IMG/VR virus record: IMGVR_UViG_3300037042_004723
Span: 1 to 64,000 of that record
Strand: one strand, 5' to 3'
Length of the DNA: 64,000 nt
From: a virus
Shown: one piece after another, positions 23,337-57,465 of the stretch
Position numbering within the stretch: the first letter of the stretch is position 1
How the letters are laid out: every line of letters starts with the position of its first letter
The notes under the pieces: generated by a model
Told to the model about the DNA's origin: nothing
What the model saw: only the letters and a program-made list of their open reading frames with translations
The model's database searches: none
Translations under genes and position numbers: made by a program

Positions 23337-23667
23337 GCGTCTACTGTACGGTAAAGATCTTTACTGATCAATAGACAGATCTCTGTACCCCGGTAGACGC
23401 CGACTACCATCCGCGTGACGAGGTATGTCATGGCGTGGAGGGAAACGGAAAACTCATGAGTTTTCCGTTTCTGAATCTGAATTCAAACCGAACCGCCTCA
23501 AGGTGTGATGCGGTTAGGCTCGGCCGTCTGGTGAGCGGCTGACGTGGTGGGGGCCGGTAGTGCCCCGCCCGTACCGTGCCGGGTACCCAGAGTTTTCCCT
23601 CGGAGCCCCTGCCCCGCCTGACGCAACGCGCCGTGAAAATCCGGGCGGGCTCAGTTGTAGTAAGGGC

Positions 23668-23901
23668 ATGGCAAGCAAATACGAGTGGGACCGAAACATC
23701 TGGACCGGCAATAGCATTGCCAGGGTGACGGAAAGCATCCGGCTGATCCGCGTGGGCGACGCCGAGGGGTTTCTCTACAGCGCGGAGGATTGGGGCGACC
23801 ATTCCACGGGGTATCCGGTCAAGGGGCCGTGGGAGAGCACCCCGACGAAAGCCATCCGCGAACTGAAAAAGGAAGCCCTCTCAGTTGTAGTGGTGCCATG
23901 A
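23668..23901 (+). CDS. Hypothetical protein (MASKYEW...)
   Basis: GTGAAA-17-TGTAGT-6-ATG; its 3' end contains the next promoter. Confidence 0.75.
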   Translation: MASKYEWDRNIWTGNSIARVTESIRLIRVGDAEGFLYSAEDWGDHSTGYPVKGPWESTPTKAIRELKKEALSVVVVP

Positions 23902-24146
23902 GCAAAGTCACTCCCCGTAAGGCCAACCTCCGCACCCTGCACGCCGCTGGCACCTACTCCAACACCGAGGATTCTTGCGCCCGCCGGCTGGCCCGCGCAA
24001 TCCACGCTGCTGAGTCCACCTGCTGTTCCACGTCGTGGTCCGCGCAGGAGCGCGCCGAGACGTTTTTTAATGCCAACGGGCTGGCCCGTTCCCTCGATGC
24101 GTGCGCCCGGCTGGAAGCATTGCGGTTGCCCGATGCGGATAACTGA
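23898..24146 (+). CDS. Hypothetical protein (MSKVTPRK...)
   Basis: CTGAAA-17-TGTAGT-6-ATG. Confidence 0.75.
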   Translation: MSKVTPRKANLRTLHAAGTYSNTEDSCARRLARAIHAAESTCCSTSWSAQERAETFFNANGLARSLDACARLEALRLPDADN

Positions 24147-24177
24147 AAATCCCGGCAACCCCAGTTGTAGTAAGTCC
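24143..24177 (+). promoter_or_regulatory. Representative class-1 leaderless promoter (about 70 copies in the window)
   Basis: CTGAAA (24143) - 17 nt - TGTAGT (24166) - 6 nt - ATG (24178); same geometry at 25501, 25761, 26045, 26348, 27265, 28279, 31024, 32763, 42709, 43207, 47142, 49098 and minus-strand copies. Confidence 0.85.
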
Positions 24178-25446
24178 ATGAAGCTTCCCCTGACCATCGG
24201 CACCGCCCCGGACGGCGCGCTCGTCCAGCTTCCCATCGCGGCCATGCGCCGTCACATGCTGGCGCTTGGTGCGTCGGGCTCGGGTAAGACCGTGCTCTGC
24301 AAGGTCATCGTCGAGGAGTGCATCCGCAAGGGTCTTCCCGTCATCGCCATTGACCCGCAGGGCGACCTTGCCTCCCTGGCTATCGAGGAGGATTCGGCCA
24401 CGCTCGTTCGCATGGGCGTTGACCCTGGCATCGCGCGTGAGTTCCGCGCCAGGGTTGACGTGAAAATCTGGACGCCCGGTGCTACGCTCGGAATTCCCCT
24501 CTCGTTCACGCCCGCGATGAACGTGCCTACGGGCATCCGCGCCGAGGACCGTATCCGCGCGTTCGGTAGCGTGGCGACCTCGCTTGCCGCCATGGTCGGG
24601 GCCACCGACGAAACCACGTCCGTTGCATTTTCGATGATTCTTGAGTACGCCGACGCCAACAACCTGGCGTGCGAAAACATCAATGATTTCATCAACTTCC
24701 TTGCCGACCCGCCGGACCCGCTGGCGCGCAAGCTTGAGTCCGTCTACGACGCGAAGGCCCGCGCGAAGTCGCACAAGTCGTTTCTTCTCAAGACCTTGGG
24801 AGCTAACCGGCTGCTGTTCGATCTCGGCTGTCCCATCGATGTCAACGAGCTTTTCGGCCTGTACGTCGGCGGGCCGACGGACAACGGCAAGGCTCGGCTT
24901 TCCGTCATCTATCTTAACACCCTGACTTCGCAGGAGGATAAGGAGATTTTCATCGCGCTGCTCTGTTCGGCCATGTACCAGTGGATGCTGACGCTGGATT
25001 CTCAACTCTGGGGCTGTCTGCTGATCGATGAAATAGCTCAATACCTTCCGCCAGTTAGGAACCCTGCCAGCAAGAAAGGGCTCATGCTCTTACTTCGCCA
25101 GGCCCGCAAGTACGGGCTTTGCTGTCTGCTCGGAACCCAAAGCCCTGGTGATATCGACTACAAAGCATTGGGCCAGATCGGTACGGTTGCCATTGGCCGC
25201 ATTCTTGGCGAGCGCGCCTTGGGTAAGGTTGAGTCGCTGATCCGCGCCGCGCCCGGTACCAATGCTGATGAGATCATGGCTAGACTGCCTGCCCTGAAGC
25301 GTGGTGAGTTCGTGCTGATCAATCCCGACGAGTACGATGGGCCGATGGACACGCAGGTCCGTTGGCTCAGTACCAAGCATCGGGTCGTTTCCGCCGACGA
25401 ATTGCCTGGGATGGTTTCCAGGGAAGATCGTGAAAAGTTCGGCTAG
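24178..25446 (+). CDS. HerA/DUF87-like P-loop ATPase (422 aa)
   Basis: HMLALGASGSGKT, IAIDPQGD, LLIDE, RQARKYGL, TQSPGDID. Confidence 0.85.
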   Translation: MKLPLTIGTAPDGALVQLPIAAMRRHMLALGASGSGKTVLCKVIVEECIRKGLPVIAIDPQGDLASLAIEEDSATLVRMGVDPGIAREFRARVDVKIWTPGATLGIPLSFTPAMNVPTGIRAEDRIRAFGSVATSLAAMVGATDETTSVAFSMILEYADANNLACENINDFINFLADPPDPLARKLESVYDAKARAKSHKSFLLKTLGANRLLFDLGCPIDVNELFGLYVGGPTDNGKARLSVIYLNTLTSQEDKEIFIALLCSAMYQWMLTLDSQLWGCLLIDEIAQYLPPVRNPASKKGLMLLLRQARKYGLCCLLGTQSPGDIDYKALGQIGTVAIGRILGERALGKVESLIRAAPGTNADEIMARLPALKRGEFVLINPDEYDGPMDTQVRWLSTKHRVVSADELPGMVSREDREKFG

Positions 25447-25500
25447 GCCAAAGGTCTTATCAAGGTTGAAAATCTTTGTTAGCTCAGTTGTAGTAAGCCC

Positions 25501-25695
25501 ATGAGCATCACAACGGTTGACGGAAAGAAGTGGGCCGAGGAGGAAACGGATGCGGCGACCCTGGCGTTTCTGATCTGGAAGCGGTGGGGCTGCGACATGG
25601 CCGGGGCGGCGGTGGCCTGGCGGCGGCTGCATCAGAATTCCTGCCCTGATGCGGAGTTCGAGAAGCTGGTGCAGCGGGCGGTGGCCCGGCGCTAG
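25501..25695 (+). CDS. Hypothetical protein
   Basis: Class-1 promoter 6 nt before ATG. Confidence 0.75.
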   Translation: MSITTVDGKKWAEEETDAATLAFLIWKRWGCDMAGAAVAWRRLHQNSCPDAEFEKLVQRAVARR

Positions 25696-25760
25696 CCGTG
25701 GCCGGAGAGTTTTCCTGTGCGGTCGGTGAAAATTCAGGTCAGCTCAGTTGTAGTAGGGAC

Positions 25761-25982
25761 ATGAACAAGAACTACAAAGTCGACTACAAAGTCGGGTCGG
25801 TCATCGAGTACAGCCCGTTCGGCGGCGGTTGCCGGCGGGTGGTCGTCGAGGAGAAGGAGGACGATATCAAGAACGGTCGGCCTGGCTTCTCGGGGCATCA
25901 GGTCGGCGCTGGTCCTGGTGGCGGGCTGGGCGGCGGGGTGTGGGGCTACGATGATCAGATCATCCGGGTCGTCAGCAAGTAG
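25761..25982 (+). CDS. Hypothetical protein
   Basis: Class-1 promoter 6 nt before ATG. Confidence 0.75.
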   Translation: MNKNYKVDYKVGSVIEYSPFGGGCRRVVVEEKEDDIKNGRPGFSGHQVGAGPGGGLGGGVWGYDDQIIRVVSK

Positions 25983-26044
25983 ACCCGCGCAAGCCCTTGC
26001 GCCGGTTCCCTGAAAATCCCGGCGTCCACAGTTGTAGTAGGACC

Positions 26045-26266
26045 ATGGACAATCCCAAGAATCGGCTCACGTTCTACCGCAAGTCGATCATCGAGTTGAT
26101 CAACTGCTCCCTCGAAGAAGCCCGGCTCGTCGAAGACCTCATGCGGTCCGAGAACGGCGGGGTACTAAGCCACCTGACCCGCGCCAAGTTCAAGCGGGAG
26201 GCGCTCAAGGCGCTGCGCCAGGTGCCGGCGATGCGCGCCGAGTTCCCTGCCTGGGATCCGTGGTGA
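26045..26266 (+). CDS. Hypothetical protein
   Basis: Class-1 promoter 6 nt before ATG. Confidence 0.75.
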   Translation: MDNPKNRLTFYRKSIIELINCSLEEARLVEDLMRSENGGVLSHLTRAKFKREALKALRQVPAMRAEFPAWDPW

Positions 26267-26347
26267 CACCCGGGCCGTCCCGGCCGTCAGGAGAGTTTTC
26301 TGCCACGGTCACCTGAAAATCCAGCCACCCTCAGTTGTAGTACCACC

Positions 26348-26539
26348 ATGAAAGCAACCTGTCCCGCGAACAAGAAGCACAATCAGTTCACGACCGTAGC
26401 TCACGTCATGGAGGAGTGGCTGGTCGACGACGCTGGCAACTTCATCAAAGTCAGTGCGTCGCTTCAGACGACCCACGGCCCTGATGCTGAAAATATCTGG
26501 ACCTGCGCCGTGTGCGGCGCAGAAGCGGAGGTCAAGTAG
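26348..26539 (+). CDS. Small Zn-ribbon-like protein, paralog A
   Basis: CP...H...WTCAVCG; near-identical to 28539-28730. Confidence 0.8.
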   Translation: MKATCPANKKHNQFTTVAHVMEEWLVDDAGNFIKVSASLQTTHGPDAENIWTCAVCGAEAEVK

Positions 26540-26541
26540 TC

Positions 26542-26784
26542 ATGAGCAAAGCAAGCGTCGTCGATATCGAAGCGTGCATGGCGAAGGTCAAGGCCCTCAC
26601 CCCCGAGCAGACCGACGAGGGCCTGCTCGATGAGGCCGTTCACCATGTCGCTTCGCAAGAGGCGAGAGAGGCCAACAACGGCGGGTTTCAGGCCCAGGTC
26701 ATCTTTCTTCTGGAGAAGGGGCTGACCGTCGAGGACGTGTTATTTCTGTTCGATGATTCCCCCACTCCTGAAAATACTCACTAG
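26542..26784 (+). CDS. Hypothetical protein, paralog B
   Basis: Near-identical to 28733-28981. Confidence 0.8.
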   Translation: MSKASVVDIEACMAKVKALTPEQTDEGLLDEAVHHVASQEAREANNGGFQAQVIFLLEKGLTVEDVLFLFDDSPTPENTH

Positions 26785-26828
26785 TCCAGTTGTAGTCACA
26801 TCAGAACCCAAACGAAAGAAGACGCACC

Positions 26829-27233
26829 GTGGCCAACAATTACCTTCAGTTCTCGTTCCTCGTTCCGCTCAAGACCAAGAAGGAGCGGACGTGGTTGACC
26901 AAGTTCCTGACGGATCGCCCGGAGGGTTTCTGGACCGCCAATCAGATCGACGACTGTGAAGATGTCGAGGACCGAGAGGTCGGGTTCCAGCATGAGTTCA
27001 GTGACGAGGGGGTGCTCATCTACGGGGAGGAGAATGGCGACACCGAGCAGGTGATCCAGATTCTCAAGCAGTTCCTCAAGGCGTCCGGCACCAAGCTGAC
27101 CAAGCTCGGGTTCTGCTACGCGCTGCCCTCGCTGCGCCCTGACGAGTTCGGTGGCGGGGCCATCCTGGTCAAGAAGACCGGCAAGGTCGAGTACATCGAC
27201 GCCAACGAGTGGCTCGCCGGCAAGCTGGCCTGA
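26829..27233 (+). CDS. Hypothetical phage protein (MANNYLQFS...)
   Basis: GTG start after a short leader from a class-1 promoter; DEFGGGA motif. Confidence 0.75.
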   Translation: MANNYLQFSFLVPLKTKKERTWLTKFLTDRPEGFWTANQIDDCEDVEDREVGFQHEFSDEGVLIYGEENGDTEQVIQILKQFLKASGTKLTKLGFCYALPSLRPDEFGGGAILVKKTGKVEYIDANEWLAGKLA

Positions 27234-27264
27234 AAATAACCCCTAGCTCAGGTGTAGTGAACAT

Positions 27265-27756
27265 ATGAGAATCACCGACGTGAAGAAGCTGGGCAAGGGC
27301 GATCAAGTCTACTGGAACGACCCCGCCGGCCCCGAGGGGTGCTCGCGCATCTACAACATCAACACCATCACGGTCTACCCAGGCGGCGTCGTCCACATCT
27401 GCGATGACCTGGGCGAGGTCGAGTGCTACGCCCGTGAGCTTCTGCCAGGGCTGCCCGACAAGCGCCCGACGCTCTGGGACAACAACGAAATCCAGTTCGC
27501 GCGGCTCCTCTGTGAGCTGGTCGCCAACTGCGACGACCTGAAGCTCCTTGAAGTCGCAGAGTCTATGGACCTCGACATGATCGACATTCGTCAGTTGTTC
27601 GACCGCGCCCACGATGTTTGGGAGGCGTCGAAGGCCAAGCACTGTCCGCCGCCAGAGCAGGCTGAGAACACCCGAAAGACGAAGCTTGCGAAGCGCATCG
27701 AGGCTGAAGCGAAGGCGGGTAATCCCCTGTTCGTCAGCTCGAATGGTCGCCGATGA
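27265..27756 (+). CDS. Hypothetical protein
   Basis: Class-1 promoter 6 nt before ATG. Confidence 0.75.
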   Translation: MRITDVKKLGKGDQVYWNDPAGPEGCSRIYNINTITVYPGGVVHICDDLGEVECYARELLPGLPDKRPTLWDNNEIQFARLLCELVANCDDLKLLEVAESMDLDMIDIRQLFDRAHDVWEASKAKHCPPPEQAENTRKTKLAKRIEAEAKAGNPLFVSSNGRR

Positions 27757-27953
27757 CCTTCAAAATCAACCGCGACGACAAGGAGAAGTGCCTCGGGTTC
27801 TTCTACCTCCGCCCAACCTACTGGGAATGGGGCGAGGTGAAGTGCAACGTGTGGTGGGGCCCCCGCCTTGGTATCATCGTCTGGAACGGCGTGGACTGGC
27901 ACCCCTACGAAGACTTCCAGCCCCACACTCTTATCGAGGTGCCGGGCAAGTAG
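27753..27953 (+). CDS. Hypothetical Trp-rich protein
   Basis: ATGA-coupled to upstream gene. Confidence 0.65.
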   Translation: MTFKINRDDKEKCLGFFYLRPTYWEWGEVKCNVWWGPRLGIIVWNGVDWHPYEDFQPHTLIEVPGK

Positions 27954-28024
27954 TCCTCGTGGCAGGAGTTTTCCGCCCGGGTAGAAAATTCGAAAGATTC
28001 CAAGGCCTCAGTTGTAGTTAGGTC

Positions 28025-28246
28025 GTGAACACCAACCAAGGAATTCCGATGACAGATGCCGAGAAGATCAAGACCCTAGAGTCCCGCGTCAAAAACACAG
28101 AGAACAGTCTCCGAGCTGTGGGAGGACGTCTAGAGCGCCTAGAGGAGGAGATGGCGCTCTGCCTCAAGTTCATGCGCGTCCAGGCCGAGAAGATGGCCAA
28201 GGAGAAGGATCCGGACTTCAAGGTCCACCCCAGCTACGAAGCCTAG
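28025..28246 (+). CDS. Hypothetical coiled-coil protein
   Basis: Class-1 promoter 6 nt before GTG. Confidence 0.7.
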   Translation: MNTNQGIPMTDAEKIKTLESRVKNTENSLRAVGGRLERLEEEMALCLKFMRVQAEKMAKEKDPDFKVHPSYEA

Positions 28247-28278
28247 AAAAAACCAGCTAGCCCAGTTGTAGTAGAACC

Positions 28279-28542
28279 ATGGACAAAACAAAGAACCTCT
28301 GGCTGTACCGAGTTCTGGAAACCGATGACGATGGCGATCCGCTCGATCATGGCGCTGCTCGTGCCGACACGCACGATGAGCTAATCGGGTACCTGTCGAA
28401 GCACCTCACCGAGATCGTCGGCGAAGGTGTGGAGCTGACCGTTCGCGTCTACCCCACCTATGACGTGAAGTCCGGCGTCATGCGGTCGGTCAATATGTAC
28501 GATACAAAAATCGGGACCAGCTCAGTTGTAGTGAACCCATGA
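28279..28542 (+). CDS. Hypothetical protein, paralog C
   Basis: Near-identical to 29032-29277. Confidence 0.8.
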   Translation: MDKTKNLWLYRVLETDDDGDPLDHGAARADTHDELIGYLSKHLTEIVGEGVELTVRVYPTYDVKSGVMRSVNMYDTKIGTSSVVVNP

Positions 28543-28730
28543 AGTCAATCTGTCCCACGAGCAAGTCTCACAAGCGGTTCACGACGGTGGCTCACGTCAT
28601 GGAGGAATGGCTGGTCGACGAGACTGGCAACTTCATCAAAGTCAGTGCGTCGCTTCAGACGACCCACGGCCCTGATGCTGAAAATATCTGGACCTGCGCC
28701 GTGTGCGGCGCAGAAGCGGAGGTCAAGTAG
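28539..28730 (+). CDS. Small Zn-ribbon-like protein, paralog A'
   Basis: Duplicate of 26348-26539. Confidence 0.8.
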   Translation: MKSICPTSKSHKRFTTVAHVMEEWLVDETGNFIKVSASLQTTHGPDAENIWTCAVCGAEAEVK

Positions 28731-28732
28731 TC

Positions 28733-28981
28733 ATGAGCAAAGCAAACGTTGTCGATATCGAGAAGTGCATGGACAAGATCAAAACCTTCACCCCTGAGCA
28801 AACCGCCGATGGCTTGCTCGATGAGGCCGTCCATCACGTCGCTTCGCAAGATGCGACCGAGGCCAACAATGGCGGGTTCCAGGCGCAGGTCACCTACCTC
28901 CTGGAGCGCGGCTGCACCGTCGAGGACGTGCTGATGCTCCTCGATAGTTCCATCGATCTGGAGATGGTTCTCGGCGACTGA
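28733..28981 (+). CDS. Hypothetical protein, paralog B'
   Basis: Duplicate of 26542-26784. Confidence 0.8.
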   Translation: MSKANVVDIEKCMDKIKTFTPEQTADGLLDEAVHHVASQDATEANNGGFQAQVTYLLERGCTVEDVLMLLDSSIDLEMVLGD

Positions 28982-29031
28982 AACAATCCACTAGCTCAGG
29001 TGTAGTGAAACCATAGCGTTGTAGTAGAACC

Positions 29032-29277
29032 ATGGACAAAACAAAACCACTCTGGCTGTACCGAGTTCTGGAAACCGATGACGATGGCGACCCGCTCGAT
29101 CATGGCGCTGCTCGTGCCGACACGCACGATGAGCTAATCGGGTACCTGTCGAAGCACCTCACCGATCTCGTCGGCGAGGGGATCGAGCTGACCGTTCGCG
29201 TCTACCCAACGTACGACGCGGAGTCCGGTGTCATGCGGTCGATCAATATGTATGAGACGAAAATCGGGACCCGCTGA
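29032..29277 (+). CDS. Hypothetical protein, paralog C'
   Basis: Duplicate of 28279-28542. Confidence 0.8.
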   Translation: MDKTKPLWLYRVLETDDDGDPLDHGAARADTHDELIGYLSKHLTDLVGEGIELTVRVYPTYDAESGVMRSINMYETKIGTR

Positions 29278-29291
29278 GTTGTAGTAGAACC

Positions 29292-29810
29292 ATGCAGACC
29301 ATTACTTCCGCCGCGACGAGCGTCAACACCCTGGGCAAGGTCTTCAAGGCCCATAACTTCGAGCACGGCGGCATCAACCTGGACATGGGCGGCGGTCGGT
29401 TCGGGACGGCTACCGAGTACCTGCGGGGACTGGGCGTTCGGAACCTCGTGTGGGATCCGTACAACCGCACCCCCGAGCACAACATCCGGGTCCTGGCTGA
29501 GTGGGGTGAGTGCGTCAAGCAGGCTGACATCCCGCGCACCATCACCATCAGCAACGTGCTGAACGTGATCAAGGAGAAGGCTGCCCGCCGCCACCTCCTG
29601 GAGATGGCGGCGGCTGGTGTCGTCGACCGTTGGACCCCGGTCTACATCGGCGTGTACGAGGGGGACAAGAGCGGCGTGGGGCGTGAGACGTCCAAGGGCT
29701 ATCAGCTCAACCGGAAGATGGCGGCGTACCTGCCGGAGATCAAGAAGTTCTTCGGCTACGCGGAGGTGCGCTGCGGCATCATCGTGGCGAGCGACAGCCT
29801 GTGCTGCTAG
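29292..29810 (+). CDS. Class I SAM-dependent methyltransferase-like protein
   Basis: NLDMGGG (motif I), WDPYN, SNVLNVIKE, VYEGD, GYQ. Confidence 0.75.
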   Translation: MQTITSAATSVNTLGKVFKAHNFEHGGINLDMGGGRFGTATEYLRGLGVRNLVWDPYNRTPEHNIRVLAEWGECVKQADIPRTITISNVLNVIKEKAARRHLLEMAAAGVVDRWTPVYIGVYEGDKSGVGRETSKGYQLNRKMAAYLPEIKKFFGYAEVRCGIIVASDSLCC

Positions 29811-29873
29811 CAGTGGAGGAGGGCGAAGACGGTCGCCGTTGAGGCGGCGAAGATGATCAGCAACGCCAAGTCA

Positions 29874-29902
29874 CTGAGCCTGCGAGGGCTCAGTTTCTTT
29901 TT
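29874..29902 (+). terminator. Intrinsic terminator
   Basis: CTGAGCC/GGCTCAG stem followed by TTTCTTTTT. Confidence 0.65.
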
Positions 29903-30038
29903 GTTTGGCAGCTTGTAGGCCACGTTGCCCATCAGCTCTTTCTTCAGACGAGGATCATCCACGGAGATCTATCATCTCAATTTGCGCGGTGATTGTCCAG
30001 TGCGTGAAAATCCTAACCCTCTCAGTTGTAGTGAATCC

Positions 30039-30221
30039 ATGTGGAAGCCAACCGATGAGATGAGCGTCGACGAGTGCGAGAACGAGATGCATCACCTGGA
30101 GGATTACTTCCAGATGTGCGTCGAGGGCCAGCACGGGATCTCCACCAAGGAGGTCGTCAGGTATCGTAGGTGCGTCGAGCGCGTGCGCGCTGCCGGTCGG
30201 CACACCTGCCCGGTCATGTGA
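30039..30221 (+). CDS. Hypothetical protein
   Basis: Class-1 promoter 6 nt before ATG. Confidence 0.7.
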   Translation: MWKPTDEMSVDECENEMHHLEDYFQMCVEGQHGISTKEVVRYRRCVERVRAAGRHTCPVM

Positions 30222-30255
30222 AAATCCAACCACCCTCAGCTGTAGTAAGGACACC

Positions 30256-47783: not shown

Positions 47784-47785
47784 CC

Positions 47786-48566: not shown

Positions 48567-48574
48567 TCAGTCCT

Positions 48575-50719: not shown

Positions 50720-50752
50720 GTAGCTACTACAACTGAGCCCGCCCGGATTTTC

Positions 50753-51001
50753 TCAAGAGCCGAACTTTTTATCAGAGCCTGCGTCCCGCCAGGTGTACGA
50801 CTTCGTTGTCGGCTTCTCTGGCACTTGTTGCGGGTCGATTCTTCCGAGGGACGCACTCGGATCGCCGGCCTTGTATTTCTTACTGGTCATGCCGAGATCG
50901 CGCAGCCGCTTCTCAATCTCCTTTAGAGTTTTCTCGGATGGCTTGTTGAGCCATGGCGTTACGATGGCTTCGCGGATGGACTCGATCAGCGACTTGAGCA
51001 T
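50753..51001 (-). CDS. Hypothetical protein
   Basis: ORF track. Confidence 0.6.
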   Translation of the reverse strand: MLKSLIESIREAIVTPWLNKPSEKTLKEIEKRLRDLGMTSKKYKAGDPSASLGRIDPQQVPEKPTTKSYTWRDAGSDKKFGS

Positions 51002-51013
51002 TCCCTGGGTATA

Positions 51014-51460
51014 TCAGAGAGCCGCGACAAGCGCGATTGCCTTGCCGAAGTTGGCGACATCAGGCAAGGCGAAGCTGTGCGCCGCCACCGTGCGGGCGAA
51101 CTCCACGACCTGGGCAACGGTGACGTAGGGGAGCACGTCGTCACCGCTGAAGCGCGGGTCAGGGTTGAACCACTTACGCTTTGTTCCCCAGTCCTCGCCA
51201 CAGACCACCCACGGCTCATCAAACGCCTCGGGATACCACGCAGCCGCCTCGAAGGTCGGCTCGTCGCCCGGCTTCCAGTAGCCACGGCCGACGTTGCTGT
51301 ACGCGCCAGAGTGCCACTGAACGCTCAGGGTCATCCCATTCTCGAAGGTGACGAGCAGCCCCGTCTGTGGGCCACCGTCGCGCTCGAAGCACGGCTCAAC
51401 CTCCTGCACGGGGAGGTTGGCGGAACCGAGGGAGTCAGCGAGGGTCAGGTGGTTCATCAT
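51014..51460 (-). CDS. Hypothetical phage protein
   Basis: FENGMTLSVQWH.G.Y motif; class-1 promoter; starts MMNHLT. Confidence 0.75.
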   Translation of the reverse strand: MMNHLTLADSLGSANLPVQEVEPCFERDGGPQTGLLVTFENGMTLSVQWHSGAYSNVGRGYWKPGDEPTFEAAAWYPEAFDEPWVVCGEDWGTKRKWFNPDPRFSGDDVLPYVTVAQVVEFARTVAAHSFALPDVANFGKAIALVAAL

Positions 51461-51596
51461 GGCGTAACTACAACTGAGCTTATCTGGATTTTCATGTAAT
51501 CGACAGACGCCCGCGCCGCTTGATGCGTGACGGCCCTGAACATAGAAAACTCTTAGAGTTTTCCGATGCCATCACGGCGCGGTGCGCCTTGGGCCC

Positions 51597-51821
51597 TTAG
51601 TAGCCTCCACCTTCTGCGCGGTCAGCGCACGGGTCACACTGGTATCCCCTGGCGCGGTCAGCCGGCGTGAGCCTGTTTGGCTTGCGACACGTGGGGCAAG
51701 GCAGGTTGCGAGGGTTGCTCGCGGTTGCGGCGCGAAGGGCAGAGTTCCCGCCGGGGTCGGCGAAGTCGCAACCGTCGTGATCCGACCAGTCGTCGCCGAT
51801 TTCGTTGTAGTAGTTGGACAT
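51597..51821 (-). CDS. Small Zn-finger-like protein
   Basis: PCPTC...GYQCDPCAD; class-1 promoter. Confidence 0.75.
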   Translation of the reverse strand: MSNYYNEIGDDWSDHDGCDFADPGGNSALRAATASNPRNLPCPTCRKPNRLTPADRARGYQCDPCADRAEGGGY

Positions 51822-51856
51822 GAAGCTACTACAACTCAGCCCGGCCGAATTTTCAC

Positions 51857-52120
51857 TCAATTCGCGCTGATTGCCGGCCATTGCTGGGCCTTGATCAGGC
51901 CGGACATGGACGGGTCATCCGACGGCTCCCATCCTTCCGCAAGGAGCGCATCGCACGCCTGGCGGAGCTGTTGACAGGCACCTCGCAGATGCGACGAGTC
52001 GCCACCACGCGCAGCTCGGTTAGCGCGCACCATCGCAAGCTTGGCCGACCAGAAGTCAGCGAGTAGCTCAGTCCACAGGTCGAGCTTGCCGTATCTCATC
52101 GCGATTTCCCTGGTGTTCAT
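51857..52120 (-). CDS. Hypothetical protein
   Basis: Class-1 promoter before MNTREIA. Confidence 0.6.
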   Translation of the reverse strand: MNTREIAMRYGKLDLWTELLADFWSAKLAMVRANRAARGGDSSHLRGACQQLRQACDALLAEGWEPSDDPSMSGLIKAQQWPAISAN

Positions 52121-52289
52121 TTTGCTACTACACCTGGGCTTGCTCAGATTTTCAGGCAATCGACAGACGCCTGATCAGCGCACTTCTGACAGAGAAAACT
52201 CTAAGAGTTTTCCGACGCACGGCAGTAACGGGGAGCCCGCCGCCCCCCCCCTTCCCGGCCGCACTCGCCGGGTGGGCTAGCCGTTATTT

Positions 52290-52499
52290 TCACTCCGCGT
52301 AGAGCACGTGGCCTTCCTGGCGCACCTTGCCAGCCCGCACCAAGATCCCCACGATGCTCTGGAACTGACCCAGCGTGCAGCCCTGGCCCATGAGCACGGC
52401 ATACAGCGGACCCTCGGGGGCACCGTCCGGACCCATCTCCTTGATGGTATCGAACACGGCAGCGATGACAGCGATGACGGCCTTTTGTTGGTTGCTCAT
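52290..52499 (-). CDS. Small winged-helix-like protein
   Basis: PEGPLYAVLM...FQSIVGILVRAGKV; class-1 promoter. Confidence 0.7.
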   Translation of the reverse strand: MSNQQKAVIAVIAAVFDTIKEMGPDGAPEGPLYAVLMGQGCTLGQFQSIVGILVRAGKVRQEGHVLYAE

Positions 52500-52637
52500 G
52501 TACCTACTACAACTGGGCTAGCCTGGATTTTCAGGCAATCGACCGAGCGTATTTCTGACACTCGGGACGCCCACGGCCAGAGAAAACTCTAAGAGTTTTC
52601 TTAACCCCGAAGGGCGGCGAGCCCGGCCCGGCCCCGT

Positions 52638-53159
52638 CTAGCGGAGCGCCTTCAGCTTGGCGGCGATTTCCCGGCGGCGGCGGGTGGCCGTGGCCGGCGA
52701 CCATCCCACCAGTGCGCCCGCCTCGGTCTGGGTCATGCCCCGGTTGATTGCCAGGATGAACGCGCGCTCGCCCTCGGGGAGCGTGGCAAGCGCCATGGCA
52801 AGCCACTGGCCTTCCTCGGTGCGCAGGGCATCCGCCCGACCGTCAGAGCCCGGAAGGCCGTCCACAATCCGGTCCATCCCTTCCGCCCGGTCTGAATCGC
52901 CGTCCGACTTCTTGGTCACCACGTCGTGGGTGCGGTAGCCCTCCGACTTGACGTGGTTGCGGGCAACGTTGCCCGCGAGCTTGGCGCAGAACGTCGCCAC
53001 CTTGCCACGGGTGGGGTCGAAAACCTCGCCCTTTTCCAGGCACTCAACAACGGAATTATTAAGGATATCCTCCTCGTCGCCGCGCTTGCCCACGGCGCGC
53101 AGGATGGCGACGGTCATAGCGGTGAGAACTTCGGTGGTCATGTCGTTGCGGTTGAGCAT
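52638..53159 (-). CDS. ECF-like sigma-70 factor, paralog 2
   Basis: FDPTRGKVATF...ARNHVK; LPEGER...MTQTEAGALVGWSPAT. Confidence 0.8.
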   Translation of the reverse strand: MLNRNDMTTEVLTAMTVAILRAVGKRGDEEDILNNSVVECLEKGEVFDPTRGKVATFCAKLAGNVARNHVKSEGYRTHDVVTKKSDGDSDRAEGMDRIVDGLPGSDGRADALRTEEGQWLAMALATLPEGERAFILAINRGMTQTEAGALVGWSPATATRRRREIAAKLKALR

Positions 53160-53371
53160 TCATCAGTTGTAGCCTATCATGAGCCGATAGTCAAGGTATC
53201 TTTTGTCATGGTATGCAGATACTTGGCACGATCATTGACAATGCATTGGTATGACCGGAAAACTCTACGGCGCAAGCGTAAGAGTTTTCCTGGTGCGCCA
53301 AGCGGCGCGGTGCGCCAAGCGGGGCCAGAACGCGCCACGCCAACCCCCGTGGGGGCCGCGCCGGGCGTGGC

Positions 53372-53662
53372 CTAGTCGTCGATGCTCGCCACCATCTCGC
53401 GGAACTTCGCCATGATGGCGGCCATCTCCCCCTCGGTCGGGCTCAGTTCGTAGTCGACCAACCCGGCGGCATCGCGGATGTCCTCCTCGGTGTAGGGCAC
53501 GCGACGGGCGGAGCAGTCCGCGAGGACGGTGACCTCCGCTGTGGTGTACCGGCGCGCGGGTCGCCAGCCGGGCGGCAGCTTGCCGCCGGTCAGAACCCAC
53601 GTGTCCGTGATGTTCTCGTAGATGGAGATAGCGGCCTCTTCGATTGCGGTGTGATTCATCAT
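53372..53662 (-). CDS. Hypothetical protein (MMNHT...)
   Basis: Class-1 motif 8 nt before the first ATG. Confidence 0.7.
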   Translation of the reverse strand: MMNHTAIEEAAISIYENITDTWVLTGGKLPPGWRPARRYTTAEVTVLADCSARRVPYTEEDIRDAAGLVDYELSPTEGEMAAIMAKFREMVASIDD

Positions 53663-53802
53663 CTGTATCCACTACAACTGTGCTTTCCGGGATTTTCGTA
53701 CAATCGACATCGCGCCCCGGCAGCTCGAAATCTGACAGGCGACCGAGAAAACTCTTAGAGTTTTCCTGGCCCGGCAAGAGCCGGGGCCCCCGGCCCCGCC
53801 TC

Positions 53803-54306
53803 CTAGCGGAGCGCCGCCAGCTTCTCGGCGATTGCCTTGCGGCGGCGGGTGGAGGTGGCCGGGGACCATCCGACCAGCGCGCCCGCCTCGGTCTGGCCCA
53901 TGCCCTGATTGATTGCCCGGATGAAGGCCCGTTCCTCGTCGGTGAGCGTGGCGAGCGCCATGGCAAGCCACTGGCCTTCCTCGGTGCGCAGGGCATCGGC
54001 CCGGCCATCGTCGCCCGGAAGGCCATCCACGATGCGCGTGGGCTCGCCTTCCTCGCCCTTGGTCACCACGTCATGCGAGCGGTATCCCTCAGCCTTGACG
54101 TGGTTACGGGCCACGTTGCCCGCGAGCTTGGCGCAGAACGTCGCCACCTTGCCCCGGGCGGCATCGAACGCCTCGCCCTTCTCCAGGCACTCCACCACGG
54201 AATCGTTGAGGATATCCTCAAGGTCGGCACGCTTGCCGACAGCGCGGACAATGGCGACGGTCATGGCGGTGAGGACTGCGGAGGTCATGTCGGTGTGGTT
54301 CAGCAT
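53803..54306 (-). CDS. ECF-like sigma-70 factor, paralog 3
   Basis: Closely similar to paralog 2; TTGCAT-17-TAAGGT-7-ATG. Confidence 0.8.
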   Translation of the reverse strand: MLNHTDMTSAVLTAMTVAIVRAVGKRADLEDILNDSVVECLEKGEAFDAARGKVATFCAKLAGNVARNHVKAEGYRSHDVVTKGEEGEPTRIVDGLPGDDGRADALRTEEGQWLAMALATLTDEERAFIRAINQGMGQTEAGALVGWSPATSTRRRKAIAEKLAALR

Positions 54307-54466
54307 GGGATTGACCTTAAGCTATATCTTATCTCAATGCAACAACAATCGACAGGGATCTGCACTTATTTTTCCGGGCCAGCTTCCGGTGGCTTACGGA
54401 AAACTCTAAACGTCTGACAGTGCATGGAGTTTTCCGGTTGCCCGGTGGCGCGGTGCGCCCGGTGGC

Positions 54467-54700
54467 TCACATCGCGGCGATCTCGGCGAGGAGAGCCGCC
54501 GTCTCGGACGCGGGGATCGGCCCGTGGTCGCAGACCCGGTCGTCAAGGTCTGCGATCAGGTCGCCGAGGTTGATCACCTCGTCCAGTAGGATTGCGGCAT
54601 CCTCGTTGCTCGCATCGATGGAGCGACGCTCCGTCTCAAGCTGATCCGCGACGAGGATGGCGCGGACCGTGGTGCAGTGGTGGCACTTGTTGTTCTTCAT
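54467..54700 (-). CDS. Hypothetical protein
   Basis: Class-1 motif upstream. Confidence 0.7.
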   Translation of the reverse strand: MKNNKCHHCTTVRAILVADQLETERRSIDASNEDAAILLDEVINLGDLIADLDDRVCDHGPIPASETAALLAEIAAM

Positions 54701-54753
54701 CTGTATCCACTACAACTGTGCTCGGCGGGATTTTCAGGCAATCGACATCGCGT

Positions 54754-54794
54754 TCAGGCCCGTGAGCTGGTCAGGCCCGTGAGCTGGTCAGGCC
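54754..54794. repeat. 17-bp tandem duplication TCAGGCCCGTGAGCTGG x2.4
   Basis: Read directly. Confidence 0.8.
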
Positions 54795-54871
54795 GGAAAA
54801 CTCTAATTAGGTTAGAGCTATTAGAGTTTTCTTGACCACAACGGTCGGCGCGGACCGTCGTGGTCTTGCGC

Positions 54872-55093
54872 CTAGGACATCGCCAGAAGGTTGCGCGCTT
54901 CCTGATCAGTCAAGATCATGTCAGTCCCGCAATCCAGATAGGCGTGCCGTCCCGTCGTCGGCTGCCAGCAATAGAGCAACCGCGCGCCGGTCCGCGTGGT
55001 GAACGGTACCTCGGTACCGTTGCAGGCTGCGACCCACATCCCTTGCTCTGCTTTCGCCTCACGCTCTGTGATGGTTTCAATAATTGTCTTCAT
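54872..55093 (-). CDS. Hypothetical protein
   Basis: ORF track; GTEVPF..R.G..LLYCW. Confidence 0.7.
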   Translation of the reverse strand: MKTIIETITEREAKAEQGMWVAACNGTEVPFTTRTGARLLYCWQPTTGRHAYLDCGTDMILTDQEARNLLAMS

Positions 55094-55123
55094 GTCTTTT
55101 TCAGCCTTTCGAAGGTTCGAAGG

Positions 55124-55315
55124 TTAGCGGACCTGCTTCGCGAGTTGCTCAGTGCTCGCCAGGAAGATATCGCTACCGCCGCACTTGGGGCACCCGTCGC
55201 ACCCGTAGGTAGCCTTTTCGGCCTGCTTCAAGGTGAGTAGCTTGCCGCACTCCTGGCAAGCCCAGTCCTTGATCGTGCGAGTCTTAACCTTCGTCGTCGT
55301 GGTGTTGTTCAGCAT
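55124..55315 (-). CDS. Small Zn-ribbon protein (MLNNT...)
   Basis: CQECG...GCPKCGGSD; TTGACA-17-TACTGT-6-ATG. Confidence 0.75.
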   Translation of the reverse strand: MLNNTTTTKVKTRTIKDWACQECGKLLTLKQAEKATYGCDGCPKCGGSDIFLASTEQLAKQVR

Positions 55316-55490
55316 TGATAGACAGTACACCTATTGACGTGCATTGTCAAGGTATCTTTTGCCTATCAATGTCGAATGTCTCGCAATGGGCGATAGAAAA
55401 CTCTAATGGGCTTTAGGCTCCCAATGATTACAGAGTTTTCTATTGGACAGTTGGCGGGCTCGGTGTCCCGCTGTCCTTTAGAACTGTCCC

Positions 55491-55844
55491 TTAGGCGACG
55501 CCGAGGGCCTGCGCCACGTCAACAACCCAGTTGACCGGCTCGGGGTAGCGATGCACGCGGCCGTTATCGACCCGGCCCTGACGCATGGTGATGTTCGAGT
55601 AGCGCACCAGGGTGAAGCGCCACGTCTTCGTGGTCGGCTCCCAGCGGAAGCCACGCGCCTTGAGAGCGTTACGGGCCTGGTAGGCATTGCCGACCACGAT
55701 CTCCGTCTCGGTGTACTTGATCGAGATCTTCGCCTCCACGGCCTCCCACAGCGCGGCGCGCTTGAAGGTCTCGGCCATCATGGCGGCCATCTCGGCCATC
55801 TCGGGTTGCGTCTCGGCGGTGTCCGTCTCGGTGTGATTCAGCAT
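55491..55844 (-). CDS. Hypothetical protein (MLNHT...)
   Basis: LKARGFRWEPTTKTW motif. Confidence 0.75.
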   Translation of the reverse strand: MLNHTETDTAETQPEMAEMAAMMAETFKRAALWEAVEAKISIKYTETEIVVGNAYQARNALKARGFRWEPTTKTWRFTLVRYSNITMRQGRVDNGRVHRYPEPVNWVVDVAQALGVA

Positions 55845-55993
55845 TCCCCTTTATCGCACGGACCGAGGTGCATTGTCAAGCATGTAATGCCATGCAATGC
55901 AGATAGTTGTACGGAAAACTCTAAGCTCTGACAGTGGGGTGGAGTTTTCTGATGCGCTTGCGGCGCGCGGTCTGCGGCCTGCCCGGCGGGGCC

Positions 55994-56278
55994 TTACTCG
56001 CCCGGATCTCCGTAGGAGGATTCAATCTCGGCACCGCAGTGATCGCAGGGCATCGGCGGACCCTCCCAGTAAACATCAGCACCGATCAGCCGCCACTGCT
56101 TATCGGTGTCCGGGGCCTCGGACGCCTCGCTTCCGTTGTCGCCGTTGGCGCAGGCGGGGCACAGACACCCTCCGTCGGCCACGTAGTAGACCAGCGTGTA
56201 GCAGCCGATCGAGGTGAAGGAGTACAAACGACCATTGCCCATACGCGGGAGGGCGGCGGAAGCGGTGTTGTTCAGCAT
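55994..56278 (-). CDS. Cys-rich hypothetical protein (MLNNT...)
   Basis: DGGCLCPAC...CDHCG.EIESSYG; TTGACA-17-TAAGGT-6-ATG. Confidence 0.8.
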   Translation of the reverse strand: MLNNTASAALPRMGNGRLYSFTSIGCYTLVYYVADGGCLCPACANGDNGSEASEAPDTDKQWRLIGADVYWEGPPMPCDHCGAEIESSYGDPGE

Positions 56279-56419
56279 GTACAGACCTTAGCAGGTCTTG
56301 CGTGTATTGTCAATCGCATAATGCCATTCAATGCAGATAGTTAGGCGGAAAACTCTAACCTATAAGCTGTTAAAGGGAGTTTTCTTAGCGTGCGTCGGCC
56401 GGGCGAACCCGGCGGGCTG

Positions 56420-56641
56420 CTAAGCGCCGGTCGGGATGTACTTCGACCCCTTGATGAACGGGCCCCAGACGGTGAGACCACCCGAGGTGATCTCGATGGC
56501 TTCGTCCTCGCGGAGCGTGCGGTACATGTCGATCGCCAGGTTCCTGACGTCATCGAACGCGCGGCCCTGCTGCGCAGGGTGCGAGGAGATGGTCTCGAAG
56601 CGGGCGGCGGGCTTGGCAACTGCGATGTGGTAGTTCAGCAT
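56420..56641 (-). CDS. Hypothetical protein (MLNYH...)
   Basis: TTGACA-17-TAAGGT-6-ATG. Confidence 0.7.
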   Translation of the reverse strand: MLNYHIAVAKPAARFETISSHPAQQGRAFDDVRNLAIDMYRTLREDEAIEITSGGLTVWGPFIKGSKYIPTGA

Positions 56642-56843
56642 TTAATGACCTTAGCAGGTGATGGTTGCATTGTCAATGCATTGAATGCGTGACAATGATG
56701 AATTGCTTCGAGTGGCGGCGTATCCTGCCCCTACTACAATTGTGCTCGCCTGAATTTTCATCATATCAATGCAGGGGAAAACTCTAAGGTCTGACAGCAG
56801 GTAGAGTTTTCTTAACGCCTGACCGGGCGAACCCGGCGGGGCC

Positions 56844-57149
56844 CTAGAACATCCACTGAACCGGCGGGGCGTTCTCGCTCCACGCGGCGACCAGCATGTC
56901 TCGGTCGTCGTCGAACACAACAGGCTCGAACGACACCACGCACTCGCTCTCGGCCTGCGTCAGCTTGCGGTACTGACGGAGCGCGGCCTTACGCTCTTGC
57001 TTGGCCCAGTCCAGCCACCCGCAGTCGGCGCAGCAGGGGTCCCACACCTGGCACTGCCAGTCGATGAACGCTGCCAGGGCTTCCTCGATAGCCAGGTCGT
57101 TCTCGTGGTCTGCCAGCCCTTCGGCTAGCGCGGCTTGTCTGTTCAGCAT
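56844..57149 (-). CDS. Hypothetical protein (MLNRQ...)
   Basis: ORF track; CCADC. Confidence 0.7.
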   Translation of the reverse strand: MLNRQAALAEGLADHENDLAIEEALAAFIDWQCQVWDPCCADCGWLDWAKQERKAALRQYRKLTQAESECVVSFEPVVFDDDRDMLVAAWSENAPPVQWMF

Positions 57150-57199
57150 CTGTCCTCCTAGTGGTGATGACGTGGCGGGGCGCGCGAATCTGACGGGGG

Positions 57200-57337
57200 C
57201 TAGCCCATGACTCGCTGGAACGGGTCAGCGATGGCGATGGCTTGCGCCATGGTCATCTGCCCGATGGCTCGGCTACCATTGCGACCGAGGAGGGTCAGGG
57301 CGCGGCAGGAAACGACCTTCACGATGATTTGCTTCAC
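57200..57337 (-). CDS. Small hypothetical protein (45 aa)
   Basis: Class-1 promoter 6 nt before GTG. Confidence 0.55.
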   Translation of the reverse strand: MKQIIVKVVSCRALTLLGRNGSRAIGQMTMAQAIAIADPFQRVMG

Positions 57338-57465
57338 GCTATCACTACAACTGTGCTCGGTCGGATTTTCAGGTGATTTTATCGAAGACCAGGCCGGGCT
57401 AGACCAGGCCGGAAAACTCTTAGAGTTTTCTTGATGCAGCATCGGCGCGGTGCGCCGGGCCCCGC

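Follow-up and report, generated by a model that had tools for sequence, protein, structure and literature searches.

Leaderless mRNAs dominate the transcriptomes of Thermus phages, as outlined in a preprint (bioRxiv 10.64898/2026.04.20.719267), and in the Bacillus phage SPO1, the host sigma-A serves the early genes and phage-encoded sigma factors serve the middle and late genes (PMC13401047). The extracytoplasmic function (ECF) sigma factors sigma-W, sigma-X, sigma-M, and sigma-V of B. subtilis use promoters with a tGAAAC and a CGTA element, spacers of 14-17 bp, and close adherence to the consensus (PMC5758882). In bacteria, a TANNNT box approximately 10-12 nt before a start codon without a Shine-Dalgarno (SD) sequence is the genomic mark of leaderless genes (PMC3160421); in Caulobacter, 4.4% of leaderless but 27% of leadered mRNAs have non-AUG start codons, and leaderless initiation is inhibited by extra 5' nucleotides and by structure (bioRxiv 10.1101/2020.05.06.081141). 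Among sigma-bearing phages, 41% of those of Firmicutes have 2-3 copies, while 95% of those of Proteobacteria and Cyanobacteria have a single copy (bioRxiv 10.1101/2021.11.12.468384). Here, we present an analysis of a 64,000-nt stretch of DNA (the window) comprising the first 64 kb of a 197,279-bp virus genome (IMG/VR record IMGVR_UViG_3300037042_004723), in which a bipartite element, TGAAAA-N16-TGTAGT, is repeated in front of small genes on both strands, mostly 6 nt from an ATG. We consider it probable that this element (the TGTAG element) defines a phage-specific, ECF-type promoter class that yields leaderless mRNAs and is read by the host core RNA polymerase together with one of six phage-encoded sigma factors.

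TGTAGT is present 87 times in the window, compared with 10.6 expected copies and a largest count of 18 in shuffled sequences. From the sites with an ATG 6 nt downstream, we built a 28-nt position weight matrix (PWM) spanning positions -34 to -7 (tGAAAAt-N9-CtCAGT-TGTAGT; cut-off, 12 bits), in which the information content is high at both boxes. The PWM matches 76 sites genome-wide and one in the reversed sequence that served as the control. Seventy-two of the 76 sites are inside the window and four are beyond it, at 68706, 69181, 70640, and 92855; 65 sites (36 on the plus strand and 29 on the minus strand) fall in 23600-57350, and the original prediction of about 70 promoters with a fixed geometry was, therefore, accurate. 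Because the training sites were conditioned on an ATG, the counts were repeated without this conditioning. The spacer between GAAAA and TGTAGT is 16 nt in 58 of 64 co-occurrences, which is the same spacing as the 17 nt predicted, counted from TGAAAA instead of nTGAAA, and in 57 of the 73 GAAA-N17-TGTAGN sites, the first ATG follows after 6 nt, giving a sharp peak at 6 nt in the spacing histogram. At the 76 PWM sites, the codon at +6 is ATG 60 times, GTG four times, and TTG once, and 58 such starts open reading frames (ORFs) of 45-479 aa; in 23634..57371, a start codon is exactly at +6 for 55 of the 65 sites. The element is invariably oriented toward its gene. The outlying sites proposed before 7107, 7484, 14899, 15847, and 22389 pass the PWM, and that before 13596 is a TGTAGA variant. 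Moreover, the motif corrects starts of the ORF lister (24070 to 24178; a 315-aa ORF from 40899 to 204 aa from 40566) and leads to the four unannotated ORFs that had been proposed, at 33066 (39 aa), 39704 (57 aa), 43136 (48 aa), and 50719 (55 aa).

The geometry recurs in related phages. In a 175-kb relative, which shares 74% amino acid identity in a HerA-like ATPase, we found 25 exact GAAA-N17-TGTAGT-N6-ATG sites and none in the control. This relative has homologs of 20 of the 58 motif-started proteins (47-76% amino acid identity), and in approximately 15 of these 20 orthologs, a (T/G/A)GTAG(T/C) box, preceded by GAAA across a diverged spacer, lies 6 nt before the start. The motif is also present in all four contigs with homologs of the phage sigma factors that were examined; in these, genes called independently by the source pipelines begin with an ATG that follows TGTAG(G/T/A) by 6 nt, with about 69-70 bp between divergent starts. 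A search for the divergent-pair pattern (see below) in the JGI/ENA metagenomes yielded 41 stretches on about 30 contigs with ~15 sample prefixes, and the same search in IMG/VR returned only the 175-kb relative and its 115-kb duplicate. The 34 metagenome loci outside the known relative contain 210 distinct candidate promoters, 170 with an ATG at +6 and 174 with a C at -1, compared with none in the control.

The 6-nt gap leaves no space for an SD sequence, as originally proposed; AGG is frequent in this gap but lies only 1-3 nt from the ATG and is, therefore, too close to serve as one. In the 57 of 73 sites with the ATG at 6 nt, TGTAGT begins at -12, i.e., at the -10 box distance that marks bacterial leaderless genes without an SD. 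The starts also share the AUG preference and the low 5' structure of leaderless mRNAs: ATG accounts for 60 of the 65 start codons (92%), and the first 30 nt from the start codon have 35% A and 49% GC and fold weakly (-1.7 compared with -6.7 kcal/mol for internal windows, p = 1e-22). Because leadered genes also have reduced structure in the start region, the folding result supports leaderless transcripts but does not discriminate. More specifically, C is at -1 in 54 of 59 sites here, in 33 of 38 in the 175-kb relative, and in 52 of 56 in four further contigs, while positions -2 to -6 are variable. C at -1 and A at +1 form the pyrimidine/purine pair that RNA polymerase favors at the start site, and since the -1 base is absent from a leaderless mRNA, its conservation can be selected only at the DNA level. 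Sites that do not abut a start codon lead into leaders with SD-like sequences, as ordinary promoters do: the site at 35272 is followed by GGAAGGAG-N7-ATG, the site at 44591 by a 54-63-nt leader, and at 19910, the promoter abuts a 23-aa ORF, after which GGAGG precedes GTG 19842. Altogether, these features support the predicted leaderless mRNAs and suggest that transcription begins on the A of the ATG.

In 12 divergent pairs, the ATGs are 69-81 bp apart (69-71 bp in 10 of them), and the intervals are entirely occupied by two elements, the -35 boxes of which meet as TTTTC-N2-4-GAAAA. Because divergent units need promoters and these intervals hold nothing but the two elements, we infer that the elements are promoters. 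A generic scan for sigma-70 promoters and intrinsic terminators in 38-57.9 kb gave chance-level results and flagged a sigma-70-like promoter at 41772.

Six paralogous ECF-like sigma factors, each with a sigma-2 and a sigma-4 domain, are encoded next to the regulon, one of them just beyond the window (Table 1). Among proteins of solved structure, their best matches are ECF sigmas (sigma-E, sigma-W, SigH, CnrH, and SigL), several of which align over both domains. The family comprises 35 clusters, all metagenomic, and the next nearest protein scores 52 bits, down from 166 bits. The initial designation as a non-sigma70 promoter should be narrowed to a promoter not read by the housekeeping sigma: the architecture is ECF-like, and ECF sigmas, six of which in ECF-like form this phage encodes, are group 4 of the sigma-70 family.

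A second promoter class, TTGAC(A/T)-N17-TAnnn(T/C)-N5-7-ATG, has 14 strict sites genome-wide, mostly at 53-64 kb on the minus strand. It looks like the promoters of housekeeping sigmas and also abuts its ATGs at ~6 nt. Four of the six sigma genes are preceded by a strict copy and the two others by near variants (TTGCAT or other spacing); the gap at the sigma gene beyond the window suggests that this gene, unlike its siblings, carries a short leader. Most second-class genes open with ATG CTG AAC/T (Met-Leu-Asn, often then His-Thr) and continue into seemingly unrelated proteins, and this opening is also present in the related contigs L108-L110. The shared codons extend the conserved block from the promoter into the first 3-5 codons, suggesting a promoter-plus-start module or a 5'-terminal translation signal. 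The -35 TTGACA of these first-tier promoters is embedded in a 15-bp palindrome, TGCATTG-A-CAATGCA (at about 56650-56700, 53200-53260, and 58630-58690 on the minus strand and at other sites), and TTGACAAT occurs 43 times compared with 4.2 expected; this palindrome resembles an operator, and a dimeric repressor bound to it could silence the first tier. Two TGTAG promoters (53664 and 54702) are located one small gene upstream of sigma genes, making positive feedback via read-through possible. Pfam searches detected no phage RNA polymerase, but the T7-like model matched no control, and diverged jumbo-phage polymerases could escape it. A k-mer enrichment analysis of 65-197 kb gave no clear third (late) promoter class.

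In the model that we favor, a promoter consisting of a -35 box tGAAAA(t), a 16-nt spacer, and a -10 box (cagT)TGTAG(T/G/A) would most likely be read by the host core RNA polymerase with one phage ECF-like sigma paralog. The polymerase would start on the A of the ATG, 6 nt past the -10 box and with C at -1, and the resulting leaderless mRNA would be translated from its 5'-terminal AUG without an SD; back-to-back pairs would act as 69-71-bp bidirectional promoters, and a palindrome described below sits at the 3' ends. The location of the sigma genes behind sigma-70-like promoters and next to the regulon suggests a host-sigma-first, phage-sigma-second order. Accommodating this order, a two-tier early programme may operate in which leaderless sigma mRNAs are produced by the host-sigma holoenzyme before a phage sigma activates the TGTAG regulon. 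We regard this host-then-phage cascade as the most economical model.

Several points weigh against this model. In the interval, 10 of the 65 sites have no start codon at +6. RNA contigs, which are from one metatranscriptome and represent relatives of roughly 90-95% identity, partly extend past predicted starts, e.g., to 16 nt upstream of ATG 42709 and ATG 45664; this overrun could be read-through, DNA carry-over, or a real leader, and in the comparison of RNA and DNA contigs from four runs (38001-57500), contig ends cannot reveal transcript 5' ends. The proposed start position is a prediction from the sequence pattern. The capacity of the host to translate leaderless mRNAs is an assumption, as the nearest relatives of the phage translation initiation factor 3 (IF3) span three phyla. 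The -35 GAAAA(T/A/C) and -10 TGTAG differ from the canonical ECF cores, AAC and CGT; because the cores are similar but not identical, we file the class as ECF-like and not in a named ECF group. Finally, the presumed link between the sigma factors and the motif is a co-occurrence in one phage clade and not independent evidence.

It is conceivable, if unlikely, that the leaderless promoters are instead read by an alternative host sigma (ECF or other), or by the host housekeeping sigma remodelled by a phage protein as in the case of T4 MotA/AsiA, and that the phage sigmas serve other, rarer promoters. ECF-type promoter architecture is common in bacteria (PMC5758882), the assignment of a sigma to the motif is a prediction, and six sigmas are set against only two abundant promoter classes, so that some would have few or unseen targets, an imbalance that our own model shares. 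However, neither 401 sampled Planctomycetota genomes nor the five genomes with the nearest IF3 relatives contain the promoter pattern above chance level, although the host may lie outside both samples. The four contigs with sigma homologs that were examined carry the motif. Moreover, the G at the second -10 position disfavors the housekeeping sigma, and a separate TTGACA/TAnnnT class exactly before the sigma genes is the layout expected of a host-then-phage cascade.

Alternatively, the elements could be promoters from which transcription starts a few nucleotides off the A of the ATG, resulting in very short leaders or the use of a downstream start codon. ECF holoenzymes can differ from sigma-70 in the distance from the -10 box to the start, and the ATG is at 8-9 nt at three sites (53664, 54702, and 30253). 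Nevertheless, we find this improbable: the 6-nt distance is nearly invariant, as is the C-1/A+1 pair, which is hard to explain unless the position of the ATG is selected against the polymerase, and even a short leader is strongly inhibitory to leaderless-type translation in Caulobacter (bioRxiv 10.1101/2020.05.06.081141), with no SD as rescue here. It is very improbable that the element is not chiefly a promoter but a site for recombination or cassette mobility, as proposed for the promoter early stem-loop (PeSL) cassettes of T4-like phages, which have a known role in shuffling (PMC2839356, PMC4122927), an operator bound by a repressor, or an RNA translation or processing signal, because the scrambled cassette order between two related phages, the duplicated modules with identical 20-nt contexts before 26512 and 28703, and the partly palindromic spacer of this phage (CTGAGCTAGCTCAG) are outweighed by a bipartite layout with a fixed 16-nt spacer, strict orientation, and exact ATG distance that a sigma-dependent promoter but not a recombination site needs, by divergent units that require promoters in 69-71 bp containing nothing else, by the loss of the spacer palindrome in relatives in which the -35, the -10, and the distances persist, and by the compatibility of shuffling with promoter function, as in PeSLs.

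We propose, then, that the TGTAG elements form a dense array of mostly single-gene units (Table 1). The first ORFs behind TGTAG promoters cover 54% of 23600-57350 and 63% of 23600-52500. A codon-usage score points to about 12-15 additional likely genes that either follow as the second or third gene of a unit or are SD-led, e.g., 47345, 47586, and 47786 after 47142. About 80% of the genes in the region are preceded by a promoter of their own; the original statement that nearly every accessory gene is separately promoted is, therefore, too strong. A palindrome, GAAAACTC-N2-3-GAGTTTTC, lies at gene 3' ends and convergent junctions (22 strict copies in 20722..57431), and its half-site word occurs 101 times compared with 3.8 expected. 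It contains GAAAA, the same word as the -35 box; its hairpin is modest (-8 to -10 kcal/mol), and its sequence is kept letter for letter in all relatives. Because the stem is without covariation, a protein-recognized site is as likely as an intrinsic terminator. Compared with the 175-kb relative, the ortholog order is scrambled (subject coordinates). We also consider, as a tentative and rather doubtful extension, a largely self-contained, orthogonal early expression system in which both tiers are leaderless only, six sigmas and IF3 are supplied by the phage, insulating palindromes GAAAACTC..GAGTTTTC are recognized by a sigma-4-like or other phage protein instead of acting by hairpin termination, and the ATGCTGAAC opening is part of the initiation signal.

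Table 1. Candidate promoters and other features of the window and its surroundings. TGTAG promoter rows come from the PWM scan and translation of the ORF from the abutting start codon; coordinates are window positions unless given as genome positions.
Feature	Coordinates	Strand	Remark
108-aa ORF, ATG 7107	7105..7141	-	PWM 30.6 bits
106-aa ORF, ATG 7484	7482..7518	-	TGTAGA variant; PWM 13.7 bits
70-aa ORF, ATG 14899	14897..14933	-	PWM 28.2 bits
100-aa ORF, ATG 15847	15845..15881	-	TGTAGA variant; PWM 20.4 bits
199-aa phage-integrase-family (tyrosine recombinase) gene 21790-22389, ATG 22389	22387..22423 (promoter)	-	TGTAGG variant; edge of cassette array
Regulon core, 65 TGAAAA-N16-TGTAGT sites	23634..57371	36 +, 29 -	PWM
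77-aa ORF, ATG 23668	23634..23670	+	PWM 40.8 bits
82-aa ORF, ATG 23898	23864..23900	+	promoter within 3' end of upstream ORF
422-aa HerA-like ATPase, ATG 24178	24144..24180	+	lister start 24070 corrected
64-aa ORF, ATG 25501	25467..25503	+	
73-aa ORF, ATG 25761	25727..25763	+	
73-aa ORF, ATG 26045	26011..26047	+	
63-aa ORF, ATG 26348	26314..26350	+	
134-aa ORF, GTG 26829	26769..26805	+	non-abutting promoter, 26-nt leader
163-aa ORF, ATG 27265	27231..27267	+	
73-aa ORF, GTG 28025	27991..28027	+	
87-aa ORF, ATG 28279	28245..28281	+	
63-aa ORF, ATG 28539	28505..28541	+	
81-aa ORF, ATG 29032	28979..29034	+	tandem pair: first TGTAGT startless; second, 19 nt on, has ATG at +6
172-aa ORF, ATG 29292	29258..29294	+	
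60-aa ORF, ATG 30039	30005..30041	+	
105-aa ORF, ATG 30256	30219..30258	+	ATG at 9 nt
31-aa ORF, TTG 30827	30825..30861	-	doubtful gene
479-aa ORF, ATG 31024	30990..31026	+	DUF932 match sub-threshold (21.2 bits, cut-off 23)
24-aa ORF only, GTG 32521	32487..32523	+	putative
94-aa ORF, ATG 32763	32729..32765	+	
39-aa ORF, ATG 33066	33032..33068	+	PWM 43.2 bits
136-aa ORF, ATG 34150	34148..34184	-	
142-aa ORF, ATG 34267	34233..34269	+	
30-aa ORF, ATG 34727	34693..34729	+	
233-aa ORF, ATG 35289	35238..35291	+	leadered exception: weak promoter, 17-nt leader with SD GGAAGGAG
ATG 36543(-) 135 aa / ATG 36612(+) 126 aa	36541..36614		divergent pair, 69 bp
ATG 38142(-) 268 aa / ATG 38211(+) 84 aa	38140..38213		divergent pair, 69 bp
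214-aa ORF, ATG 39238	39236..39272	-	
46-aa ORF, ATG 39410	39408..39444	-	
57-aa ORF, ATG 39704	39702..39738	-	
204-aa ORF, ATG 40566	40564..40600	-	ORF lister: 315 aa from 40899
ATG 40870(-) 90 aa / ORF-less + promoter	40868..40942		divergent pair; + unit probably non-coding RNA (about 40940-41155)
ATG 42640(-) 260 aa / ATG 42709(+) 69 aa	42638..42711		divergent pair, 69 bp
ATG 43136(-) 48 aa / ATG 43207(+) 122 aa, DUF3846	43134..43209		divergent pair, 71 bp
ATG 43941(-) 97 aa / ATG 44012(+) 69 aa	43939..44014		divergent pair, 71 bp
ATG 44512(-) 66 aa / + promoter	44510..44593		divergent pair, 79 bp; + leader of 54-63 nt to ATG 44645/44654
153-aa ORF, ATG 45664	45662..45698	-	promoter within 3' end of upstream ORF
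ATG 46179(-) 172 aa / + promoter without abutting start	46177..46250		divergent pair, 69 bp
73-aa ORF, ATG 46484	46450..46486	+	
ATG 47061(-) 82 aa / ATG 47142(+) 67 aa	47059..47144		divergent pair, 81 bp
ATG 48299(-) 73 aa / ATG 48369(+) 65 aa	48297..48371		divergent pair, 70 bp
ATG 49027(-) 101 aa / ATG 49098(+) 193 aa	49025..49100		divergent pair, 71 bp
ATG 50204(-) 135 aa / ATG 50274(+) 70 aa	50202..50276		divergent pair, 70 bp
55-aa ORF, ATG 50719	50717..50753	-	
148-aa ORF, ATG 51460	51458..51494	-	
74-aa ORF, ATG 51821	51819..51855	-	
87-aa ORF, ATG 52120	52118..52154	-	
69-aa ORF, ATG 52499	52497..52533	-	
96-aa ORF, ATG 53662	53660..53698	-	ATG at 8 nt; directly upstream of sigma gene 53159
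77-aa ORF, ATG 54700	54698..54736	-	ATG at 8 nt; directly upstream of sigma gene 54306
Promoter with 85-nt leader	56724..56760	-	leader contains sigma-70-like promoter for ATG 56641
45-aa ORF, GTG 57337	57335..57371	-	
Sigma paralog, sixth, divergent, 176 aa	41206..41736	-	hhalign 96.8%, E 3e-10; TTGACA-N17-TATGAT-N7-ATG upstream
Sigma paralog, 173 aa	52638..53159	-	TTGACT-N17-TACAAC-N6-ATG upstream
Sigma paralog, 167 aa	53803..54306	-	TTGCAT-N17-TAAGGT-N7-ATG upstream
Sigma paralog, 185 aa	58031..58588	-	Sigma70_r2 34.6 bits; TTGACT-N17-TACAAC-N6-ATG upstream
Sigma paralog, 194 aa	60348..60932	-	Sigma70_r2 39.4 bits; paralog alignment suggests true start ATG 60923
Sigma paralog, 173 aa	genome 64278-64799	-	just outside window; TTGACA promoter, 11-nt gap to ATG
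Sigma-70-like promoter cluster	55313..63090	-	first bases 55350, 56313, 56676, 58623, 59124, 59648, 61964, 62568, 63090; mostly then ATGCTGAAC
Genes behind sigma-70-like promoters	41736, 53159, 54306, 55315, 55844, 56278, 56641, 57149, 57852, 58588, 59089, 61481, 61930, 63632	-	
Palindrome, AAAACTC starts	20723, 20949, 23449, 30673, 33657, 36024, 37027, 38551, 39471, 39848, 41155		
Palindrome, AAAACTC starts (rest)	42963, 44248, 45161, 48037, 48650, 50504, 51546, 52195, 52583, 53748, 57413		
Intein-bearing genes	961-3804, 9019-10779	-	LAGLIDADG/homing-endonuclease domains
Intein-bearing genes	genome 108039-110645, 117354-119471, 126344-128293	+	LAGLIDADG/homing-endonuclease domains

Individual units of the array show further features. 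A two-gene module is duplicated (26348-26784 and 28539-28981, plus strand), with an identical 20 nt before GTG 26512 and GTG 28703, and the genes neighboring it, 28279 and 29032, both open with ATGGACAAAACAAA; this arrangement points to a recent cassette duplication within the array. Five successive TGTAGT promoters in 51460-54736 (minus strand) have in common an extra block, GTCGATTG(C/T)(C/A), directly before the -35 box, which may be an UP-like extension or a relic of recent promoter duplication. The 41.3-bit TGTAGT promoter at 40940 (40906-41160, plus strand) leads into an ORF-less unit of ~215 nt that ends at a palindrome and probably makes a non-coding RNA. This unit holds a tRNA-like T-arm, GGGGGTTCGATTCCCCC (41019-41035), which gives a sub-threshold match to the tmRNA 3' end (13.9 bits, gathering 47); neither ARAGORN nor Rfam at gathering score made a call in 40906-41160, where only sub-threshold noise was seen near 40940, and Rfam at gathering score had no match anywhere in the window. 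A contig from an RNA run matched 41056-41136 with unrelated flanks.

The genome is 100% complete by CheckV and has a GC content of 57%. Phage DNA is present in sediment and freshwater-sediment metagenomes, while a megablast search of 50,697 phage records with 32 kb of the window as the query gave no DNA relative among cultured phages, the lone 89-bp match being noise. The encoded functions are of the bacterial type and include a full-length IF3, the sigma factors, SNF2, DnaB, and RecA. Inteins with LAGLIDADG or homing-endonuclease domains are numerous and are found in the latter three proteins (the SNF2 being a helicase) as well as in a 586-aa and a 649-aa protein. IF3 is encoded at 259-801 on the minus strand (IF3_N, 107 bits; IF3_C, 105 bits), and its nearest cellular relatives (40-51% identity) are from Polyangiales (Myxococcota), Planctomycetota, and Bdellovibrionota, leaving the inference of a host ambiguous across three phyla. 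In E. coli, IF3 discriminates against leaderless mRNAs, and a phage copy of IF3 in a leaderless-rich genome is a notable pairing. An archaeal virus with TATA-type promoters was considered and rejected based on the bacterial IF3, the sigma factors, and the SD sequences on leadered genes. An alphaproteobacterial host, an idea that came from the resemblance of GCTACAAC to the Caulobacter -10 consensus, was dropped for lack of support.

If the predicted starts are confirmed, few natural systems would, to our knowledge, combine a sigma-specific promoter and leaderless translation as cleanly as these genes do. Approximately 37 bp would suffice for the expression of a gene, whichever way it points, and 70 bp for that of two genes. 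Leaderless-dominated phage programmes, in addition to those of the Thermus phages and actinophages, would then include a clade that has an ECF-type sigma set of its own, and the promoter/sigma pair would be defined well enough for testing of orthogonality. For annotation, the motif fixes the starts of dozens of small ORFs that standard gene callers misplace or miss, here and on at least 30 related metagenome contigs.

How does this array compare with the known systems? The Thermus phages phiYS40 and Lalka27a are, in the outline given by the preprint, likewise large phages in which the A or G of the start codon is the first base of most transcripts and the temporal classes have distinct promoter consensus sequences; however, their promoters are of the TAnnnT type and depend on the host sigma-A holoenzyme, with phage factors for late genes, their 5' ends have been mapped, and their hosts belong to a leaderless-prone phylum. 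In contrast, the main class of this phage has ECF-like -35 and -10 boxes, the latter with G as its second base; the phage encodes six sigmas, and its starts are predicted from sequence. In common with ECF promoters, the TGTAG element is bipartite and close to consensus, with an A-rich tGAAAC-type -35, a short GT-containing -10, and a fixed spacer (16 nt in 58 of 64) in the 14-17-bp range, and the candidate cognate sigmas, like those of group 4, consist of a sigma-2 and a sigma-4 domain alone. They differ in the cores, with GAAAA instead of AAC and TGTAG instead of CGTA/CGTC, and in that the sigma family is a separate, phage-only cluster and that the regulon would consist of ~70 leaderless phage genes instead of a stress regulon.

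As in an SPO1-like cascade, host-type promoters are found before the phage sigma genes and a distinct class before about 65 other genes; a further comparator among phage sigma cascades is phiEco32 gp36. Unlike in these cascades, there are six paralogs, compared with mostly one and no more than two or three per genome in a survey of phage sigmas (bioRxiv 10.1101/2021.11.12.468384), and both tiers abut start codons. PeSL cassettes combine sigma-70 early promoters that have ordinary leaders with generic terminators, whereas the promoters here are ECF-like and probably leaderless, and the 3' element is a sequence-invariant palindrome with the -35 word GAAAA. Nevertheless, the array recalls the PeSL cassettes of T4-like phages (PMC2839356, PMC4122927), in which a conserved promoter and a conserved stem-loop bracket each small ORF of unknown function within a hyperplastic region and the cassette order varies among relatives; here, flanking by promoter and palindrome and scrambled ortholog order are both seen. 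Cellular leaderless mRNAs (Caulobacter, bioRxiv 10.1101/2020.05.06.081141; Deinococcus, PMC4007540; Actinobacteria and others, PMC3160421) share the -10 box ~12 nt before the start, the AUG preference, the lack of an SD, and the unstructured 5' end, but the corresponding genes are scattered and read by the housekeeping sigma, while those described here form a dense array on one specialized promoter. Leaderless-dominated phage transcriptomes, phage sigma cascades, and ECF promoter architecture are, thus, known already; what is new is their combination in an ECF-like class of ~70 members with a near-invariant -35/16/-10/6/ATG geometry, a host-type tier that also appears to be leaderless, and six sigmas.

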